Assembly (NCBI GenBank): GCA_038064675.1
Contig: JBBTSM010000010.1
Location: forward strand, 2,977 to 66,976
From: Patescibacteria group bacterium
GTDB taxonomy: Bacteria > Patescibacteriota > Patescibacteriia > UBA9934
Direction of reading: 5' to 3'
Length of the DNA stretch: 64,000 nucleotides
Shown here: positions 22,829 through 64,000 of the stretch, piece by piece
Layout: each line of letters begins with the position of its first letter
Position numbering within the stretch: position 1 is the first letter of the stretch
Translations under genes and position numbers: made by a program
The notes under the pieces: generated by a model
What the model was told of the DNA's origin: nothing
Database searches by the model: none
Seen by the model: only the letters and a program-made list of their open reading frames with translations

Positions 22829-25800
22829 CTAGAACACCGGAGGAACAAATGGCCCCAATGGGTTATTTTTTAACTTCGCACCCTTTCTGTTGCTTTCTCG
22901 ATACTCAAGAAGTCTCCTGCGGAGAACCGATGTATCAGTTGGGATTACCGTAATCCACTCAGGATGAGGTGAGATATCGGCCTTTATGCCAAGGAAATCC
23001 AATGTCTGCCTCAAATACTCTTCACCTTCAAGACCGATTTGTCCGCTTCCGTGATAGTAGAAGGTTTTTTGTGCAATATGCATGAACGCTTCAATTTCAT
23101 CACGGATTCTGGCATTGAATTGTTGAACAATTTCATCGCTCTCCGAAGCCTCGGCGAGCTTTCGGACATCGAGATTTTCAGGTTGCGCGTGTTCCGCCAT
23201 TCCACCTCCTCGAACATTTTTTCTGTCGTTAAAATCAGACCACGTGTACGCAACAAGCTCTCCACTTTTGAACTTATCGATTTCACGACGTGGGTCGACC
23301 ATGACCCAATCCTTGTTCGAATATCCAACCGTTCTCTTTCCACCACGAGCGACTGAGAAGAGACGACCGAATTCGATATCTGCCCAGAAATCCTTGGTAC
23401 GATTTCCACCGATTGCGGCATAACTTGATCCGCGCAAAATCGTATTTCGTCCCTGAGTCATAATGTTCCCAGTCTTTGAGCGTGAAATTGCTTCGATAAA
23501 CTGCGCAAACCTCATCGCAACATGGAAGGTTGGATTCTTTTCGTAAACCTCCGGATCGAGATCCTGCCTACCGACAAGAGCGTCCAAATCCGGTCTCTTC
23601 TTCATGTCATCAAGGACATCGACAAGATACTCTGGAGATCCATAGACTGTATCTGCATCGTTGGCGATGACGAGAATTTCCCGGTCTCCTGATCGTCGAA
23701 GGTTTCGTCGCAACGCGAGATCGAATACTTTTCTTTTAATCCAACCGACTTCAGGTTTTCCGACCTTAATTTCCTCAGAGTATACCTTCAGTGCAACTTT
23801 AGGGTGATCTTTTCTGAAACGCTCGATCTCCGAGAATGTTTTGTTTGCATCTGCGCCTTTTGGCCAGTTGACGTAAAGAAGTATCTCAAACTTCGCGGTT
23901 TTTCCGGCCCAAACTGAAGCACCTTTCCGGTCGCGGTTCACCGCATACGTCTCCAGAGTTCTGTAAATATTTGCATGCTCACCGGCACCAGCAGCCGCCA
24001 ACGCAACACAAGCTTCTACGCTATCACCCATCTTGTCTTTGTTTTGAGCGTCAAGCGTATCGAGTTCCTTTTTGTAGCCAGGATAGCGCCTTTCCATGTC
24101 TTCGAAATACCATTCCATCTCCTTTCGCGGATTGAGAGGCGCATTTGGATCCTCTTTCAATCGAGGAGACATATCTGCACGAAGTGCCTGTTCGCTCCCC
24201 TCGGTTGCATTTGGGTAATACGGATACAGCGCAATAGCAGAATCTCCACCTTCTAATTCTGGCGTCTGATTCCCCGCTTCTGGCCCTGCAAATTCACCGG
24301 GCGGCAAAGGTGGTGGTGCAACTGGAGGCATAAACGGACCCGCCTCACCTCGAGGCCCCTTCTTCATCGGCTCCATCGGTTGACGACCGCGAATTGGGAC
24401 GAACCAAGGGACGATGACTGGCGGAACTTCGTGGCCTGGGAGATCGATGTTCGTGACGTGGCGAGCGACGGATTCAGCGGTGTCGGTGGAGGTAATTCCG
24501 GAATGGACTCCAGCGCCCTGCGCTGTTGCAAGAATACTGAAGTGGTTCACGCCAGCGGCATCGAAGCCTTTAGAAACTCCAACCTCGGCAGTGTGATACA
24601 GCGGAATAACCTTTCCGTGATCAATGCGGAAGAACGTCTTGCCGATGTCCGATGTCGGATCGATATGAATCTGCCCGTGTTGATCCGGTAATACTTCAAT
24701 AACACTATTCTGCGCGTGATCGTTCATCGTGAGCAACACACGAATTTTGCCCTCAACAAGTTCTGCCGGAGCATTATCTGTTAATCCGCTATGGAATGAA
24801 CCGTCCTTCGCCATGTGACCCATGGTCATGACGATCTGGCCATCTGAATCCAAACCCATTGGGTGCACGCCATCGCCGGTCACTCCGCCCCATTCAAGTT
24901 TCAATTCGTTGTGATCTGCGCCAAGCCAACGCTTAAGCTCCTCTGAAAAATGCATCGGCGTGTCGTTGTCCATCCAGTGATCGCGATGGATTTTCTGCAT
25001 TGCATGATGACGCAACCATTCCCATGTGCTTTCTTTGGTACTGGTGGTGGCGCCTGAATTGATCCACTGATCTTTCTCCACAATATTCGCGCCTGCACCT
25101 CGCAACGTAGCCTCCGACGCAGCATCAAGATGACCCGATGCATCGATGTGCAGGCCAGATGCAATTGCATGATGATCCGCGGCAGACTCAAGAACAAAGC
25201 TTCCATCCGCCTGCGGCACAAGATCGGTTCCCGGAGGAGTCGTGAACGATCCCCCGCCAATCATTTCCATATTCGGTGAACCGACGGCAGCAAGCGGGGC
25301 ATGATTAAAGTACGCCATGAGCGCATGCCACGCACTGCCGATGGTGGTGTCTCCACCCGTACCAAGCGCCCACAGGTCGTGAGCGACGGTACCAACAACG
25401 GCACCGATCGCCATCGTAGAAAGTCCGCGCTTCAATGCGACACGGTTCGACCACTCTGCGAACTTCTTCTGCTGCACGCGCGCTTTGCTGGTCTCCTTGC
25501 CATATAAGGAAACTTCACTCAGCTTATAGATATAGTCAAAGTACTCCTGAAATCCGGCGACGGTCTTATTCTTTACTTTCTCTCCGTATGCATCTTCGTG
25601 TGCTTTCCGAAGGGCGGCTTTCAAACTTGCACGCGCAACATCGAGATTCAACCGTTCAACTTCAGCCTCCGCAACGCCTGTATATTTCAGCAAGTCGATC
25701 TTCTCGCGATCACTGATACGAATACGCGCCTCTATATTCGCAAGGACTTCAGTAGCATTTTCGATCGTGACATCACCACGCAACTCTTTGCTATCCGCAC

Positions 25801-27748
25801 TCAAGAATCCGCGAACACTTTCCGCGAGCCCCTTTGCACTTTCACGAGCAAGCGCAAACTTCTCCATCTCTGCGCGACGAGGCTGAACCTCGCGACCACT
25901 CCGCAGCGCTTGGATTTCCTTTTCTAACGAATACCGCTCCATCGGCTGCCACCATCCAAGCTTTCCCTGTCTCGCTAATAATTCTGCCTCAACCTTATTC
26001 GAATCGTCATTCTTCGTCTCCCCACCAAGCGCCATCTGGCGTTCGTGAAGAGCGCGCTCGCTGTTCAATCGGCCCTTTTCTTTCCATGCGCTGTACGCTC
26101 CAGTGACAACTGCGGAACCTCCAAACGTAAGTGCCTTTGCCGCCGTGTTTTTGAGACCGGCCATAATTCCAATTCCCCACATGGACGCTGCCGCGCCAAG
26201 CGCGATACCGATTTCGTTTCGAAACGCTATGGCAATGGCGCCTCCAGCCACAGGGTGACGACTACTCCATTGATCAAGCTTTTCAAGTGTTTTATCAATA
26301 AAATTCTTTTCTCGTTCCGTCCGAGCGCCAAGCTTCATTCGACCAACGACAATTTCAAGATCAATATCCAGATTCTCCATCCCATTCACTGCCGCGGCAG
26401 CCTGACGAACCTGTTCCGCAAGCTTGTCCAAGTTATCCGCATACAACATGCCACGCCCTTTTGCTTCTCCGCCCAATGCATTCGCACTCGCGAAAATTTT
26501 ATCCCGACGTAATTGCAATTCCTCCTTGCTCATTTCAACGTTCGAGGCATATTCCTTCACCAACTCCAACAGATCAACACGAACCGCCTCTTCTTCTGGC
26601 GAATACTTCGTGACGCCTTCTGCATCTTTCTTTCCAAACTCCGTTCTTCGTTCTCCGTGCGCACCTTCGTTGTGCAAAAATTCATCACTTCGTTGCACCA
26701 AGCGTTCAAGCATCGCGCCAGTTGCCTTTTCGTGGTCTGCACGACTCAGCCCCTTACCAACGAAAACGTTGCGCGTAGACAGCACCTGGTTGCGTAATTT
26801 TCCAATCCCACGCTGTCGATATTCCTCGTGCGCAAGATTATGCTTGAAAATCTTATCCCACGTTCCCGCATCTCGCTTTTCTGCGTGCAATGATTCATCT
26901 ACGTCGTCACTGATAATATCCTCGGCCGTATCAGAGATATCGCCTGCGCCGTACCGCAAATGCAAAGGAACGCCCTTTTTCGCGACGGGCTTTTCGCTTT
27001 CGTCATCCTCAAGCTCAACCATCACTGGCGTTGCTGGGGGTTTTGCACCCGTCTCAACAACTTTGCGCTCCATAGAATCCGCGGTCAATTTCTCGAGATT
27101 CACAGAAACTCCACTCCCGTCTACATCAGCTGGGAGTGCTTTGACGCCCTCAGACATCGCTACAACCTTAGCAACAGGTATCGCAAGAATTTCACCTTTC
27201 GGTCCTTTTAACAGCACCGGGCTACCATCATCTCCAGACACAACACCAAGAATTCTCCATCGCTCCACTGCGGCCCCGCGCAACAAAAAAACATCTTCAC
27301 CGGCACGCCGTGCATACGCAGCCTGAGCGCGGCGAGCCTCATCTTCTGTCCATGATTCTGCCGACCAACGATGTCGTGGGCGCCTGTACGTTTCACCACG
27401 AGATACAGCATTATCGTATCCGCTCCGCATTTCGTCATCAGACAAAATTCCGTACGCATCGGCGGCCTCCTTAAATCTCCGGCTCGCCTCAGCTCGAACA
27501 GCGGCCGATTCCTTGTCGTGTCTATCAGGATGAAATTTCATCGCAAGCTTAAGGAAAGCAGCCTTAATTTCATCTTTACTCGCATTAGCGCGAACGCCCA
27601 AAGCATCGTACAGGGTCTTCGGCGCAGATTCACTACTTGATTCCGCGGTATCCGTCGCCTCGTGCGAACCGCTGTTTTTTTTATAGCCCCCGGCAACTCC
27701 CAGTCCGAAGAACGTATCTTTTCCTAACGGCATTTTATACATCAACAT
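22829..27748 (-). CDS. giant multidomain protein (1639 aa): N-terminal DnaJ J-domain, coiled-coil region, Gly/Ala-rich TM segments, proline-rich linker, C-terminal GT-A-like (DXD) domain
   Basis: J-domain TLYDALGVRANASKDEIKAAFLKLAMKFHPDRH...YGILSDDEMRSGYD with HPD. Hydrophobic AGGAIAIAFRNEIGIALGAAASMWGIGIMAG and GLSTMAIGAVVGTVAHDLWALG. PFMPPVAPPPLPPGEF linker. C-terminal LVIANDADTVYGSPEYL. Confidence 0.8.
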   Translation of the reverse strand: MLMYKMPLGKDTFFGLGVAGGYKKNSGSHEATDTAESSSESAPKTLYDALGVRANASKDEIKAAFLKLAMKFHPDRHDKESAAVRAEASRRFKEAADAYGILSDDEMRSGYDNAVSRGETYRRPRHRWSAESWTEDEARRAQAAYARRAGEDVFLLRGAAVERWRILGVVSGDDGSPVLLKGPKGEILAIPVAKVVAMSEGVKALPADVDGSGVSVNLEKLTADSMERKVVETGAKPPATPVMVELEDDESEKPVAKKGVPLHLRYGAGDISDTAEDIISDDVDESLHAEKRDAGTWDKIFKHNLAHEEYRQRGIGKLRNQVLSTRNVFVGKGLSRADHEKATGAMLERLVQRSDEFLHNEGAHGERRTEFGKKDAEGVTKYSPEEEAVRVDLLELVKEYASNVEMSKEELQLRRDKIFASANALGGEAKGRGMLYADNLDKLAEQVRQAAAAVNGMENLDIDLEIVVGRMKLGARTEREKNFIDKTLEKLDQWSSRHPVAGGAIAIAFRNEIGIALGAAASMWGIGIMAGLKNTAAKALTFGGSAVVTGAYSAWKEKGRLNSERALHERQMALGGETKNDDSNKVEAELLARQGKLGWWQPMERYSLEKEIQALRSGREVQPRRAEMEKFALARESAKGLAESVRGFLSADSKELRGDVTIENATEVLANIEARIRISDREKIDLLKYTGVAEAEVERLNLDVARASLKAALRKAHEDAYGEKVKNKTVAGFQEYFDYIYKLSEVSLYGKETSKARVQQKKFAEWSNRVALKRGLSTMAIGAVVGTVAHDLWALGTGGDTTIGSAWHALMAYFNHAPLAAVGSPNMEMIGGGSFTTPPGTDLVPQADGSFVLESAADHHAIASGLHIDASGHLDAASEATLRGAGANIVEKDQWINSGATTSTKESTWEWLRHHAMQKIHRDHWMDNDTPMHFSEELKRWLGADHNELKLEWGGVTGDGVHPMGLDSDGQIVMTMGHMAKDGSFHSGLTDNAPAELVEGKIRVLLTMNDHAQNSVIEVLPDQHGQIHIDPTSDIGKTFFRIDHGKVIPLYHTAEVGVSKGFDAAGVNHFSILATAQGAGVHSGITSTDTAESVARHVTNIDLPGHEVPPVIVPWFVPIRGRQPMEPMKKGPRGEAGPFMPPVAPPPLPPGEFAGPEAGNQTPELEGGDSAIALYPYYPNATEGSEQALRADMSPRLKEDPNAPLNPRKEMEWYFEDMERRYPGYKKELDTLDAQNKDKMGDSVEACVALAAAGAGEHANIYRTLETYAVNRDRKGASVWAGKTAKFEILLYVNWPKGADANKTFSEIERFRKDHPKVALKVYSEEIKVGKPEVGWIKRKVFDLALRRNLRRSGDREILVIANDADTVYGSPEYLVDVLDDMKKRPDLDALVGRQDLDPEVYEKNPTFHVAMRFAQFIEAISRSKTGNIMTQGRNTILRGSSYAAIGGNRTKDFWADIEFGRLFSVARGGKRTVGYSNKDWVMVDPRREIDKFKSGELVAYTWSDFNDRKNVRGGGMAEHAQPENLDVRKLAEASESDEIVQQFNARIRDEIEAFMHIAQKTFYYHGSGQIGLEGEEYLRQTLDFLGIKADISPHPEWITVIPTDTSVLRRRLLEYRESNRKGAKLKNNPLGPFVPPVF

Positions 27749-59933: not shown

Positions 59934-60740
59934 TTACTTTCGAATACCGATGTTTCCGTTGACCGGCAGAGATTTCATCAATGTGTCTGAAACAACTTTC
60001 ACTTCATGAAAATCCTTGTTCCACGACAGGAAGACCGCTTCAGTTGGGTACAGGTATCGTCCACCGTCGTGACCACAGAAGTACACGTTGGGATTGTCTT
60101 GTGTGCGAATCATATCTCCTGGCATGCATGTGGTGATTTCTACAACAGCTGTAGCGGTCGCAACAGCTGCCTGAGGCTTCACGGAAACATCGGTGGCACT
60201 CAGCGTGATTGCCGACTCCGCCCTTTGCGCAGCCTTCAACATTGGATACGGATCGATTGGAGCATTGTTGAGATTCAAGATCTCGAAATGGAGGTGCGAC
60301 CCGGTGCTCTCCGCATTTCCCGAATCGCCAACGTACCCAATCTGCTGACCGCGTTTCACATGGGCGCCCTTTTTAATCCCCTCGGCGTATGCGTATTCTG
60401 GACCACCCTTCCCGTCGTCGGTTCCCGGAGTGTCGTTGTTCAAATGGACGTAATTATATTGATACCCGTCGTCACCGCCCAGCATGATCATGTATCCGTA
60501 GCTCGGCTCCACCATTGGAGCAAAAAGGATCGTGCCGTCCACTGCCGCAAGGACTGGAAGCATCTTGGCCGCCATAATGTCTGTGGCGTGATGCACGCGG
60601 CCACCGCTTCGTGCCGCGGTGAAGGTGTCGGTGAACGAGACGTCGCCCACCACTGGGAACGTGATGTCGCGAACAGTTTCAGCGTGGGCGAACGCTGGCA
60701 CGCCCAAGAGCAAAAGCACGGAACATATCCAATACTTCAT
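59934..60740 (-). CDS. M23-family metallopeptidase (LytM domain) with signal peptide and C-terminal extra domain
   Basis: HHATDI ... GDSGNAESTGSHLHFEI: HxxxD and HxH zinc-ligand motifs. Confidence 0.88.
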   Translation of the reverse strand: MKYWICSVLLLLGVPAFAHAETVRDITFPVVGDVSFTDTFTAARSGGRVHHATDIMAAKMLPVLAAVDGTILFAPMVEPSYGYMIMLGGDDGYQYNYVHLNNDTPGTDDGKGGPEYAYAEGIKKGAHVKRGQQIGYVGDSGNAESTGSHLHFEILNLNNAPIDPYPMLKAAQRAESAITLSATDVSVKPQAAVATATAVVEITTCMPGDMIRTQDNPNVYFCGHDGGRYLYPTEAVFLSWNKDFHEVKVVSDTLMKSLPVNGNIGIRK

Positions 60741-60785
60741 AGGTTCCTATCGTATCAATTTCCCCAATATTTTAAAAGAATTGAT

Positions 60786-61652
60786 GTGGATACGGTGGTT
60801 GACAAATCCATAGACAGAATCCGCCGTATCGGCTACACTTCCCGGTCCGATTTCACCGCAGGAGGATCCCTGGCAACTCGCATCATTCCCCTCGATCTCA
60901 CCAACGAGAAAGTTCGACTGGACCTCGAAGCAATGCAGTACGCCTACACCCAAGGTTCGTGCATCGCCTTCGCCGCGGCCATGCATCGGGTCACCGGATG
61001 GCAGATGATCGCACTCGATGCGACGCTCACTCACGTCGGCGTTCGCACACCGGACGGGACCATCTGGGACGCCCGCGGGCCGGTGACGCCGGAAGAGTTC
61101 ATCGAACCGTTCACTGACACCGTGCCCGACGAGTTCCCGGTCGTCAGCTGGGAATATCTCCGAGGAGCGTGTCCGGCGATCGACTACCTTCTCGGAGCGC
61201 AACGACACGCATCGATGATGTTCCCGCAGCTCCCCCACCTGCCCACCAGCGATCGCTCACGGAACCTCGCGTTCATGGACGACGTGTGGGAGCTCGGCAT
61301 CCTGTGGAACTACTGGATTGCAGCTCAGCAACCCGATTCGCTCACCACGTGGCCGATCATCAGGGAGGCATTCGGGGACGAGGCCGGCTACCGCGCCACG
61401 AACAATCACGGCGCGCGAACCGTGGATCGAATGCTCACGTCACAACAGGGTCGCGGGCCGAGTCATCTCCCCCGCGGAATCGAGCAGTTCCTCACGAAGC
61501 TCGCTAGCCTCAGTCGGAAGCACGGCCTGTGGATCCACGCCGTAGGAACGTGGCCGCGGATCGTCCGACTCGATCGCGAAGAGAAGATGGCGGCCGTCTA
61601 CATGATGCGCCAGACCGACACCGCTTCGGGATTTCTCACGACACTCCTCTGA
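60786..61652 (+). CDS. hypothetical protein encoded in a markedly GC-rich segment (probable horizontal acquisition)
   Basis: Only the part of ORF 60006..61652 that does not overlap the M23 gene. In-frame GTG at 60786, or ATG about 60934. GC and GC3 far above the window average. Confidence 0.45.
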   Translation: MDTVVDKSIDRIRRIGYTSRSDFTAGGSLATRIIPLDLTNEKVRLDLEAMQYAYTQGSCIAFAAAMHRVTGWQMIALDATLTHVGVRTPDGTIWDARGPVTPEEFIEPFTDTVPDEFPVVSWEYLRGACPAIDYLLGAQRHASMMFPQLPHLPTSDRSRNLAFMDDVWELGILWNYWIAAQQPDSLTTWPIIREAFGDEAGYRATNNHGARTVDRMLTSQQGRGPSHLPRGIEQFLTKLASLSRKHGLWIHAVGTWPRIVRLDREEKMAAVYMMRQTDTASGFLTTLL

Positions 61653-61656
61653 AACG

Positions 61657-61700
61657 CGAAGGCCGCCCCTTATTCCACGGGGGCGGCCTTCATGCTTTTT
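61657..61700. terminator. hairpin aaggccgcccc-ttattccac-gggggcggcctt followed by catgcttttt
   Basis: 11-bp GC stem plus T-run between convergent genes. Confidence 0.7.
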
Positions 61701-62010
61701 ACAGTTTCATCATCGCGGCACCGAATTCCTCGTCCGTCGCCTGATCACCGTCGAGAAGCGCGAACGGATTCGCTTGCCAGTGTGGCAATGCGGCCATGTT
61801 CTTTCGCGTCAGTCGCTCCGCGAGAACACGATCGCCGTCGGTCACCGATCCCATAAAGAACTGTACTCCCCCTTCAAAAATATCTTCCGCGGGCTTCATC
61901 GCTCCATCGACAACGTCGAATTTGCACACAACACCTTCCGCGGTCTCGATTCCCACGTCTCCTGCATGGTCCCCTTCGAGTGGCATTCCGCACGCAATGC
62001 ATGATTTCAT
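61699..62010 (-). CDS. hypothetical protein with N-terminal zinc-ribbon-like motif
   Basis: Start MKSCIACGMPLEG (CxxC), then an acidic domain. Confidence 0.4.
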   Translation of the reverse strand: MKSCIACGMPLEGDHAGDVGIETAEGVVCKFDVVDGAMKPAEDIFEGGVQFFMGSVTDGDRVLAERLTRKNMAALPHWQANPFALLDGDQATDEEFGAAMMKL

Positions 62011-62111
62011 ATACAAAAGTGTATCACCATTCTCTTTTCCCACACCATTGACAGCTCCACAGAACAGGCATGAAATGAAGGGTAAGGCCTTATTTTTAAT
62101 CCTCCTGGCTT

Positions 62112-64000
62112 ATGACCTCTCTTTTTCTTCGGAGAACACTTGGAATAACAACGATCTTTGCCATGTTTTTGGGCTTTTTCCCAACAGCAGCTGGTGCAGC
62201 ATGGCTCGCCGCCCCAACCAACGTCACCCTTGATGGCGGCATCTACACCAACGACACCACGCCAACCGCCACCTGGACACGCCCTTCTGGAGCAACCTGG
62301 TATCAAATTTTAGTCGATAATGGCAACTGGATCGATATTTCCAATACCGACTCCTACACCATCTGGAGCCTAGCAAACGGCTGGCACACGTTCTACGTTC
62401 GTGCTCGCGACAATAGCAACACCGTAAGCGTTTCAGACTCCGTCACCTTCGAAATCGACACAGCTGGCCCAACCGTTCCTGCAGTTTCGCCATCAACGGC
62501 AACTGAGGATCGCGCAACAACCTTTAGCGTAACGCCTTCCGGCGAATCTACAATATCGTTCTGCGATCTGTACGTGAGCGGATCCTCTGTCGGATCGATG
62601 ACGAAAAACGGATCAACCTTTACCAAGTCCTACACGTTCACCAACGACGGCAGCTACACGGTGTACGCACGCTGCGCCGATGGTGATGGGAACTACACCA
62701 CTGGAACATCGCGCACGGTTACGGTAAGCAATGTGGATGTTTCAGACACCTTCTCCGTTCCATCAGTGTCTCCTTCAATCGCAGTAGAGGATCAATCAAC
62801 AACCTTCACCGTTACTCCATACGGCACACTCGATGCGATCGCCTGTAATCTGTACGTCAGTGGCGCGTACGCAGGATCGATGAGCAAGTCGTCAGCAACA
62901 TTCAGCAAGAGCTACACCTTCTCGAACGATGGCAGCTACACCGTGTACGCGTCTTGTGAAAACGAGAACGGCAGCTGGGTGAATGGCACATCACGAACCG
63001 TCAGCGTGAGCAACATCGACGTAAACGACACATTTTATGTGCCATCGGTTTCACCATCGTCAGCGAACGAGGACGAATCGACAACATTCACCGTGTCGCC
63101 ATACGGCACACTGGATGCCATCGCATGTAACCTCTACGTGAGCGGATCATCCGTTGGTTCCATGAGCAAATCCGGCAGCACATTTAGCCGCAACTACACC
63201 TTCAGCAACGACGGAAACTATACCGTCTACGCGTACTGCGAAAACGAGAACGGCACTTGGACATACGGAACGTCACGCACTGTTACCGTCAGTAACACCA
63301 ATACAAACGATACATTCACCGTCCCATCGGTTTCTCCTTCAACGGCAACCGAGGACCAGTCCACGACATTCTCTGTTACGCCATACGGCACACTCGACGC
63401 AGATGAATGCAAACTCTACGTCAGCGGATCATCTGTTGGATCGATGAGCCAGTCTGGCGACACCTTCTCCAAGAACTACACCTTCTCGAACGACGGGAGC
63501 TACACGGTGTACGCGTACTGTCAGGATGAGAATGGCGACTGGGAATACGGAACATCACGCACGGTTACCGTGTATCAGCAAAGCTCGAGCAACACATCGC
63601 TCGATGTTCCAACGGTTTCCCCATCAACGGCAGTGGAAGACGAACGAACCGAGTTCACCGTGTATCCAACAAGCAACTACAATGTTACTGATTGCTGGTT
63701 GTATGTGAACGGCTCACGCGTCGCAACAATGGACGAAGAATCCACGAACCGATTCGCTGCAGACTACACCTTCAGCAACGACGGCAGCTACAGCGTGTAC
63801 GCACGATGCACCGATAGCCACGGCACAACGGTGAACGGCGACGAACGCAGCGTGTACGTGAGCAACCAGTCGTATTCGTACGACGACGCAGACCGCGGAA
63901 CACTCATCAAAATTCCCTGTGGCGTGTATTCCAACACATCGGAAACGTGTAAGGCCGTGTATTACTACGGCAACGACGGCATGCGCCACGTGTTCCCAAA
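62112..64000 (+). CDS. secreted surface protein with an N-terminal Ig-like domain and at least 5 tandem ~95-aa Ig-like repeats (two Cys each); partial, continues beyond window
   Basis: Open frame from ATG 62112 (preceded by in-frame TAA) to the window end, missed by the ORF track. Signal peptide MTSLFLRRTLGITTIFAMFLGFFPTAAGAAW. Repeat unit VPSVSPSTATEDQSTTFTVTPYGTLDAIACNLYVSGSSVGSMSKSGSTFSKNYTFSNDGSYTVYAYCENENGTWTYGTSRTVTVSN. Confidence 0.8.
   Translation, partial: MTSLFLRRTLGITTIFAMFLGFFPTAAGAAWLAAPTNVTLDGGIYTNDTTPTATWTRPSGATWYQILVDNGNWIDISNTDSYTIWSLANGWHTFYVRARDNSNTVSVSDSVTFEIDTAGPTVPAVSPSTATEDRATTFSVTPSGESTISFCDLYVSGSSVGSMTKNGSTFTKSYTFTNDGSYTVYARCADGDGNYTTGTSRTVTVSNVDVSDTFSVPSVSPSIAVEDQSTTFTVTPYGTLDAIACNLYVSGAYAGSMSKSSATFSKSYTFSNDGSYTVYASCENENGSWVNGTSRTVSVSNIDVNDTFYVPSVSPSSANEDESTTFTVSPYGTLDAIACNLYVSGSSVGSMSKSGSTFSRNYTFSNDGNYTVYAYCENENGTWTYGTSRTVTVSNTNTNDTFTVPSVSPSTATEDQSTTFSVTPYGTLDADECKLYVSGSSVGSMSQSGDTFSKNYTFSNDGSYTVYAYCQDENGDWEYGTSRTVTVYQQSSSNTSLDVPTVSPSTAVEDERTEFTVYPTSNYNVTDCWLYVNGSRVATMDEESTNRFAADYTFSNDGSYSVYARCTDSHGTTVNGDERSVYVSNQSYSYDDADRGTLIKIPCGVYSNTSETCKAVYYYGNDGMRHVFP
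62476..63900 (+). repeat. tandem direct repeats, period 282-285 bp, 5 units, coding
   Basis: Unit starts at 62476, 62761, 63043, 63328, 63613; units diverged at about 75-85% nucleotide identity. Confidence 0.85.

Follow-up and report, generated by a model that had tools for sequence, protein, structure and literature searches.

An Ig-like repeat surface protein of a groundwater Patescibacterium ends in an unnamed domain that may anchor it to the cell envelope

The last gene in a 64,000-nucleotide stretch of contig JBBTSM010000010.1 (hereafter the window, meaning the whole stretch analysed) begins at position 62112 of the forward strand and runs off the end at position 64000. The source is a groundwater Patescibacterium, a member of the Candidate Phyla Radiation (CPR). 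Once completed from other assemblies, the gene encodes a protein without any standard anchor, which ends in an unnamed domain common to thousands of CPR exoproteins. The stalk of immunoglobulin (Ig)-like repeats that precedes this domain is by itself routine, and makes the protein a member of the known class of bacterial Ig-like repeat surface proteins. We favour, with moderate confidence, a model in which the protein is exported by Sec, is anchored non-covalently on the cell's own envelope by its C-terminal domain, and projects its N-terminal domain on the Ig-like stalk. More tentatively, we propose that the C-terminal domain is a Patescibacteria-specific envelope-anchoring module, the CPR counterpart of SLH and LysM, which would mark the displayed surfaceome of these uncultured episymbionts, with its Ig-like stalk proteins, proteases, cellulases and cupredoxins, and would have been borrowed by phages.

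The completed gene and its C-terminal domain

An earlier note on this DNA, made from the sequence alone, had described 62112-64000 as an open frame that was unannotated and absent from the list of open reading frames (ORFs). Translation confirmed a stop-free run of 629 codons, for which the chance expectation is about 1e-13, taking ~4.7% stop codons per position. The frame is indeed missing from the list, in which ORFs running off the source are not entered, but its unannotated status proved to be an artefact of the window edge: GenBank holds the same 747-aa protein as MEK7633207.1 ('hypothetical protein AAB473_05495 [Patescibacteria group bacterium]') on a 143-kb contig, and a public protein collection holds a 100%-identical protein (P0001). 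The locus was present in three further assemblies (L001, GCA_964357295.1; L002, the Logan assembly of ERR3858136; L003, the ENA assembly Hain_H41_01um), in which 4.4-11.8 kb aligned with the tail of the window at 99.98-100% identity. The missing 3′ part was taken from L001:11839-12193; this assembly and the window agree at 99.98% identity across 11.8 kb. The complete gene corresponds to L001:9950-12193 (747 codons); the window holds its 5′ 84%, and the 355 nt that lie beyond include a stop codon at window-equivalent positions 64353-64355. The C-terminus, which the earlier note had wanted found by extending the contig, reads ...YYSVDSIDDVL. A hairpin with a T-run lies directly 3′ of the stop codon, and the gene is probably monocistronic.

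The completed protein bears none of the C-terminal anchors (sortase signal, S-layer homology (SLH) domain or transmembrane segment) that the earlier note had suggested looking for. No LPx[TSA][GANS] motif occurs anywhere in its 747 residues and no hydrophobic segment is present beyond the signal peptide. Profiles for SLH, LysM, SH3b, PG_binding, CW_binding, WxL and CWB2 gave no match on the C-terminal domain, which spans 157 residues (591-747). Searches with wider scope gave the same answer: residues 581-747 matched no Pfam family at E<=1, residues 591-747 matched none in NCBIfam, the domain is without a PHROGs family, and literature searches retrieved no description of it. The first 39 residues of the domain are encoded within the window (63882..64000, + strand) and were recognised by a C-terminal-domain profile at E 2.7e-13; they comprise a loop with Cys603/Cys613 and the strand pair AVYYYGNDGMRHVFP.

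An AlphaFold2 (AF2) model of the C-terminal domain was obtained with high confidence (predicted local distance difference test (pLDDT) 93.5, predicted TM-score (pTM) 0.86). It shows an alpha/beta fold of two tandem ~50-residue lobes, in which strands and helices follow one another in the same way; a loop predicted to be stapled by a disulfide comes before the first lobe. The duplication was also apparent in sequence, as profile-profile comparison aligned the two halves in register over 48 columns (E 1e-3).

A single-sequence word-index search with the C-terminal domain returned only 10 proteins, and profile searches were required to reveal its distribution. These detected 4,932 clusters at 50% identity with E<=1e-3, including 2,020 at E<=1e-30. 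All protein names that state an organism refer to Patescibacteria, to Candidatus Uhrbacteria or to plain 'bacterium'. Two nucleotide records encoding 54-57% identical orthologs are titled otherwise, as 'uncultured Gammaproteobacteria bacterium' (L004, 105-kb) and 'Candidatus Kapaibacterium sp.' (L006, 509-kb); these unconfirmed labels come either from bins that were mislabelled or from a distribution that is wider.

Of the 353 proteins retrieved, 296 carry the domain at the C-terminus, 46 at the N-terminus just behind the leader, 7 at both ends and 2 in an internal position. Occurrence at the N-terminus, the C-terminus or both suits a binding module rather than a terminal sorting signal. Its partners are domains typical of exoproteins: BNR/Sortilin/PSII_BNR propellers (17 of 48 sampled proteins), subtilases (S8), GH5 and GH6 cellulases, DUF3048, G8, NHL, Big_1/Invasin_D3, SH3_3/SH3_4 (SH3b) and cupredoxins. 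In proteins of the present architecture it is the constant element, accompanying anything from 1 to 8 Ig-like units.

Export signal, Ig-like units and unit number

Residues 1-29 (62112..62198, + strand) have the features of a signal peptide, MTSLFLRRTLGITTIFAMFLGFFPTAAGA, followed by AW. It consists of the n-region MTSLFLRR (RR at residues 7-8), a hydrophobic core and small residues at -3/-1 in the sequence AGA. The core is the only window of the whole protein above 1.6 in 19-residue Kyte-Doolittle hydropathy (KD19 maximum 1.68, residues 12-33). A lipobox Cys is absent (the earliest Cys of the protein is residue 151), and these properties are those of a Sec signal peptide of the signal peptidase I type. 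The signal peptide claimed in the earlier note was upheld by this re-analysis, since K/R residues in the n-region, the h-region and the AxA site are kept in 59 of 62 homologs. Sec export with cleavage after AGA is accordingly what the sequence predicts, and would yield a mature acidic protein of ~78 kDa (pI 4.1).

The start at 62112 is favoured by the N-termini of homologs and by the 747-aa GenBank call. Rival gene calls start at an internal Met at 62163, giving a 730-aa protein in which the signal-peptide n-region is lost. The mRNA 5′ of 62112 reads CCUCC, which is the complement of a Shine-Dalgarno sequence.

The signal peptide is followed by an N-terminal Ig-like domain of the Big_13 type (residues 30-118; 62199..62465, + strand), identified by Pfam and AF2 and carrying the motifs YTNDTTPTxTW, GWHTFYVRA and FEIDTxGP. 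Pfam Big_13 (PF19077) matched residues 45-117, including the TNDxTPT motif, with 34.7 bits (E 2.6e-8; cut-off 27). Five further Ig-like units follow on the same strand: unit 1 of subtype A (residues 119-212, Cys151/Cys188; 62466..62747), units 2, 3 and 4 of subtype B (residues 213-306, Cys245/Cys282, 62748..63029; residues 307-400, Cys339/Cys376, 63030..63311; residues 401-495, Cys433/Cys470, 63312..63596) and unit 5 of subtype C (residues 496-590, Cys528/Cys566; 63597..63881). Pfam Y_Y_Y (PF07495) scored 66.4 bits summed over five stretches, one per unit (cut-off 26.6). Each of these matches covers only the last ~40 positions of the model (26-62 of 65) and therefore indicates fold class, not function. 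TcaA_3rd_4th, another Pfam family, matched inside unit 5 (residues 517-584).

Structure prediction of a repeat, which the earlier note had proposed, was carried out on the N-terminal domain together with unit 1 (residues 30-212, 42 homologs). The model is all-beta, with pLDDT 95.2 overall and above 92 for the N-terminal domain, and places both unit-1 cysteines in long central strands. Foldseek retrieved tandem Ig and fibronectin type 3 (Fn3)-like rods as its best matches in the Protein Data Bank (PDB): SiiE of Salmonella (2yn3, 2yn5) and the Fn3-like modules of CbhA from C. thermocellum (3pdd), with E values from 2.4e-8 (CbhA) to 1e-7 and TMq of 0.57-0.69 (0.64-0.69 for the bacterial Ig domains of SiiE). 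Pfam scores above cut-off, the all-beta model and fold matches at E ~1e-8 together bear out the earlier reading of an exported protein built of Ig-like repeats.

The five units are tandem and in register as first described, with periods that differ slightly from the 285, 282, 285 and 285 bp given in the earlier note: we measured 282, 282, 282 and 285 bp. Spacing was 94, 94, 94 and 95 residues at a VSPS anchor and 282, 282, 282 and 288 nt at the second-Cys block. Tandem Repeats Finder recognised the three middle units only (period 282, 2.9 copies, 73% matches). The units are diverged and not identical, as had been noted, sharing 48-78% identity in protein and 54-71% in DNA, with a longest exact shared run of 22 nt. 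The NxT/S-rich, N-glycosylation-like composition given in the earlier note is seen as a modest excess, and does not by itself support N-glycosylation. We counted 21 NxS/T sequons, whereas shuffles that preserve composition gave 13.7 +/- 3.0 and attained 21 in 23 of 2000 cases; the excess arises in a protein rich in N, S and T. Extended D/E-x-N-x-S/T sequons number just 4 in 747 residues.

The pairing of cysteines in each repeat, also recorded in the earlier note, is conserved. Exactly two Cys, 35-44 residues apart, were found in 265 of 270 units of the family; three units had none and no unit had one. In the present protein, 37-38 residues separate the paired Cys within a unit, rather than the ~55 of the earlier note, a figure which derives from the 57 residues between the second Cys of one unit and the first Cys of the next. 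The Cys pair of the C-terminal domain behaves similarly: 280 domains have both residues, 15 have neither and 1 has a single Cys. Total Cys equals twice the number of units plus two in nearly all family members. Loss of Cys as pairs only is the pattern expected of disulfides, and this conservation suggests one disulfide per Ig-like unit.

The same plan, with 1-8 units followed by the C-terminal domain, was shared by 92 of 94 homologs, 81 of them having the N-terminal domain. One unit was found in 22 proteins, two in 12, three in 19, four in 21 and five in 7; orthologs have 1-5 units, while distant relatives without the N-terminal domain reach 8. The order of subtypes is fixed: proteins open with A, any B units come next and C units close the array. 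The present protein is ABBBC, and orders among its relatives include A, AC, ABC, ABBC, ABCC and ABCCC. As judged from these sequences, stalk length evolves by duplication and loss of internal units, a process of which this family offers a clean view. Two paralogs, with three units and one unit (L005, L008), were observed in the Patescibacteria metagenome-assembled genome H41-bin101_1 from the same aquifer well.

Comparison of unit numbers supported in part the suggestion that the gene is a candidate for length variation. Between lineages the number does vary, as described above. In contrast, five units are present in the window and in each of the three other assemblies, at 99.98-100% identity, which does not suit a fast switch. 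Moreover, the divergence of the units (at most 71% DNA identity and no more than 22 nt of exact match) makes slippage or efficient recombination unlikely. A contingency locus, in which unit number would switch quickly within a population by such events, is suggested by the in-frame tandem units with their period of 282-285 bp and by the different unit numbers of orthologs. In view of the low identity of the units, the uniformity of four assemblies from related samples and a fixed A/B/C order that fits rare ancient duplications, we regard it as hardly credible.

Conservation was compared across domain classes, and no hypervariable tip was found: mean pairwise identity is alike in all four classes, at 48-56% (C-terminal domain 56%, N-terminal domain 55%). 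On this ground we discarded the simple idea that the protein carries a host-specific adhesin head that evolves fast. The gene was also rejected as the target of a diversity-generating retroelement, as there is no template repeat/variable repeat pair for its 3′ end within L001:7000-14574 and the neighbouring genes have no reverse-transcriptase domain.

The C-terminal domain as a candidate anchor

A second, nearby gene links the domain to peptidoglycan metabolism. The window encodes a secreted 268-aa M23 peptidoglycan hydrolase (59934..60740, - strand; Pfam Peptidase_M23, and NCBIfam peptidoglycan hydrolase and DD-endopeptidase), the last 50 residues of which (59937-60086, - strand) form a single lobe of the C-terminal domain. 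Profile positions 26-76, corresponding to lobe 1, aligned with residues 219-269 at E 2.6e-13. Presence of a lone lobe on this enzyme indicates that the ~50-residue lobe is a separable unit. Peptidoglycan hydrolases usually carry a wall-targeting module at such a terminal position. In L004, a 55%-identical M23 ortholog, lobe included, adjoins the ortholog of the Ig-repeat gene. The M23 gene is absent from the four other loci, but it is the only neighbour that recurs: orthologs are not accompanied by the 263-aa gene found downstream, the 285-aa gene found upstream or a Zn-ribbon gene.

The domain was also found on viral contigs. Three IMG/VR contigs encode proteins with a signal peptide and an N-terminal, Cys-less version of the domain (L009:584-2089, L010:3899-4789 and L011:3896-4876). 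On L010, which also encodes a small terminase (E 1e-22), there is a 4-nt overlap between the domain gene and the stop of a gene for a lysozyme-like protein (SLT_3 at E 7.7e-5, a score under the cut-off). On L009 and L011, a weak transglycosylase- or endolysin-like match lies two genes from the domain gene. Judging by these contexts, the viral proteins are possibly lysis or adsorption accessory proteins of CPR phages.

We infer an anchoring role, a ligand in the envelope and an orientation on the cell from how the domain is distributed, from its indifference to position, and from the association with peptidoglycan hydrolases and with lysis/tail regions of phages. In the model we favour, Sec would export the protein and the signal peptide would be removed after AGA. 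The C-terminal domain would then bind peptidoglycan, the S-layer or some polymer of the wall and so hold the protein in place, as SLH, LysM or WxL do in other monoderm bacteria. The five disulfide-stapled Ig-like units would form a stalk with the Big_13-type N-terminal domain as its free end, pushed outward, so that the number of units would set the reach of this domain from the wall. To our knowledge, it is not known how Patescibacteria attach proteins to their monoderm, S-layered envelope. Cryo-electron microscopy of groundwater CPR cells has shown an S-layer (a periodic surface layer) and no outer membrane, and CPR bacteria are episymbionts which attach to hosts (bioRxiv 10.1101/2020.05.14.094862).

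Several observations weigh against this model. Foldseek found nothing significant in the PDB for the C-terminal domain (best EccB1 5cyu, E 0.15, TMq 0.33), and a 59-sequence profile of the domain had no match among PDB sequences at E<=10. In BFVD, the two significant fold matches are both to uncharacterised proteins, one of them from a Rhodococcus phage, and lysin-type matches appear only at E>0.3. Adjacency to the M23 gene holds in only 2 of 6 distinct loci. The muralytic matches beside the viral domain genes are weak (E 4e-4 to 8e-5), and the path from the domain through EccB to the wall-binding protein PlyCB, discussed below, is a chain of two weak similarities. On the export side, cleavage of the signal peptide is a prediction, and no Shine-Dalgarno sequence precedes either candidate start, 62112 or 62163.

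We weighed the model against other explanations of the domain. It is possible, though unlikely, that the orientation is reversed, the protein being a released or N-terminally tethered adhesin whose C-terminal domain is a distal head binding the host wall or a polysaccharide. The attachment of CPR episymbionts to hosts (bioRxiv 10.1101/2020.05.14.094862) would fit such a head, the protein has no known self-anchor, and fusions to cellulases and SH3b fit a substrate-targeting carbohydrate-binding module as well. The conserved AxA cleavage site nevertheless speaks against a signal-anchor, and conservation of the domain matches that of the rest of the protein (56% mean pairwise identity, with 55% for the N-terminal domain). 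Its presence on unrelated proteins such as cupredoxins and proteases is easier to reconcile with one shared 'self' ligand than with a variety of targets, a lobe sits on an M23 enzyme of the autolysin type, and phage contigs place the domain near weakly muralytic-like genes. A lower probability still attaches to the idea that the protein is the S-layer subunit, alone or alongside others, with the Ig-like domains forming a two-dimensional lattice and the C-terminal domain serving as stalk or anchor. Groundwater CPR cells do bear a periodic surface layer (bioRxiv 10.1101/2020.05.14.094862), and a survey that reports S-layer proteins in Patescibacteria also names multiple Ig-like domains with an anchoring segment as typical (bioRxiv 10.1101/2024.05.28.596244). 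The present protein is acidic, has a signal peptide and has no Cys outside structured pairs. Weak arguments to the contrary come from the at least two paralogs in H41-bin101_1, with 3 units and 1 unit, and from a range of 1-8 units among close relatives, which is hard to square with a fixed lattice geometry.

Very improbable, in our view, is a role of the C-terminal domain as a sorting signal for a dedicated secretion or attachment machine, possibly removed in the process, as in the type IX secretion system (T9SS) or sortase pathways. A terminal domain that is conserved across thousands of otherwise unrelated exoproteins, and C-terminal in 296 out of 351, would fit such a signal. It would not be expected, however, to follow the signal peptide at the N-terminus in 46 proteins, to occupy both ends in 7 or to be internal in 2, nor to occur as a lone lobe on an M23 enzyme. 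A well-folded, two-lobe domain with a predicted disulfide staple, five loci with no conserved partner gene, and CPR cells with no outer membrane to cross (bioRxiv 10.1101/2020.05.14.094862) also argue against it.

Comparison with known systems places the novelty in the terminal module. SiiE is a 53-domain, Ca2+-stiffened, type-1-secreted protein of a diderm bacterium. SiiE and CbhA resemble the present protein as tandem beta-sandwich extracellular rods, whose domain number likewise varies between homologs. Identity to SiiE and CbhA is only 16-27%, and the present protein differs from SiiE in its predicted Sec export, its 6 Ig-like domains, its Cys pair per unit and its other C-terminal domain. 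The Cys pair and the A/B/C subtypes also set the units apart from the Big_13 and Y_Y_Y families at large, as a narrower, unnamed subfamily. The likeness we propose to the monoderm anchors SLH, LysM, WxL and CWB2 is that of a portable module found on unrelated exoproteins, at either end, and made of short tandem units; unlike these, the C-terminal domain has no Pfam or NCBIfam match and no fold match in the PDB. The best, non-significant fold match was to the EccB repeats of mycobacterial type VII secretion, which are also small beta/alpha units of the envelope. One lobe could be superposed by Foldseek on EccB3 (6sgy_A) over 58 residues with a root-mean-square deviation of 2.7 Å, again without significance; TM-scores are 0.3 and there is no sequence similarity. 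EccB repeats have been likened to the wall-binding phage protein PlyCB by authors who stressed that the similarity is weak and wall binding untested (PMC4769845). The T9SS C-terminal sorting domains, which are defined by a TIGR04183-type profile, a place strictly at the C-terminus and a translocon in the outer membrane, differ in turn, in that the present domain is N-terminal in 46 proteins, has no NCBIfam match and belongs to CPR bacteria, which lack an outer membrane. The departure from known systems is thus a terminal module which does not pass as SLH, LysM, SH3b, WxL, CWB2, sortase signal or T9SS domain, yet behaves like such a module.

If the domain is an anchor, profile searches with it would provide a sequence handle for finding which proteins of any CPR genome are displayed on the surface. 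It would also be a candidate CPR-specific affinity probe to label or capture uncultured cells, and a starting point toward the wall component recognised.

Other features of the locus and window

The gene lies beside a 68-bp divergent intergenic region, where a tentative sigma-70-like promoter was read by eye (TTGACA-17 nt-TGAAAT, 62048..62076, + strand). A promoter scan whose rules demand an A as the second base of the -10 hexamer listed nothing in front of the gene. Scans of the window with Rfam and for tRNA gave no matches.

Opposite the M23 gene lies a 548-codon ORF (60006-61652, + strand), of which gene callers take the last 285-288 codons (60795-61652), without a family; the long stretch ahead of these codons appears to be open by chance. 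The block 60001-62000 is the most G+C-rich 2 kb of the window (GC 0.577). The remainder of the window is ordinary chromosome, encoding ATP synthase, aminoacyl-tRNA synthetases and a UvrD-type helicase.

Two further genes were noted. A 1,639-residue ORF (22829-27748, - strand) has a DnaJ (J) domain as its sole Pfam match (residues 46-112, E 7.5e-18); the other ~1,500 residues have no family, making this an unusually large J-protein for a reduced genome. About 1 kb past the window end, L001:13205-14269 (- strand) encodes a 354-residue protein in which four putative metal-binding motifs of the MopE type were recognised (PF11617, E 3.6e-31). This gene is itself built of repeated DNA, in 96-nt units of 60-78% identity, and a weak relative is present near the ortholog of the Ig-repeat gene in L007.

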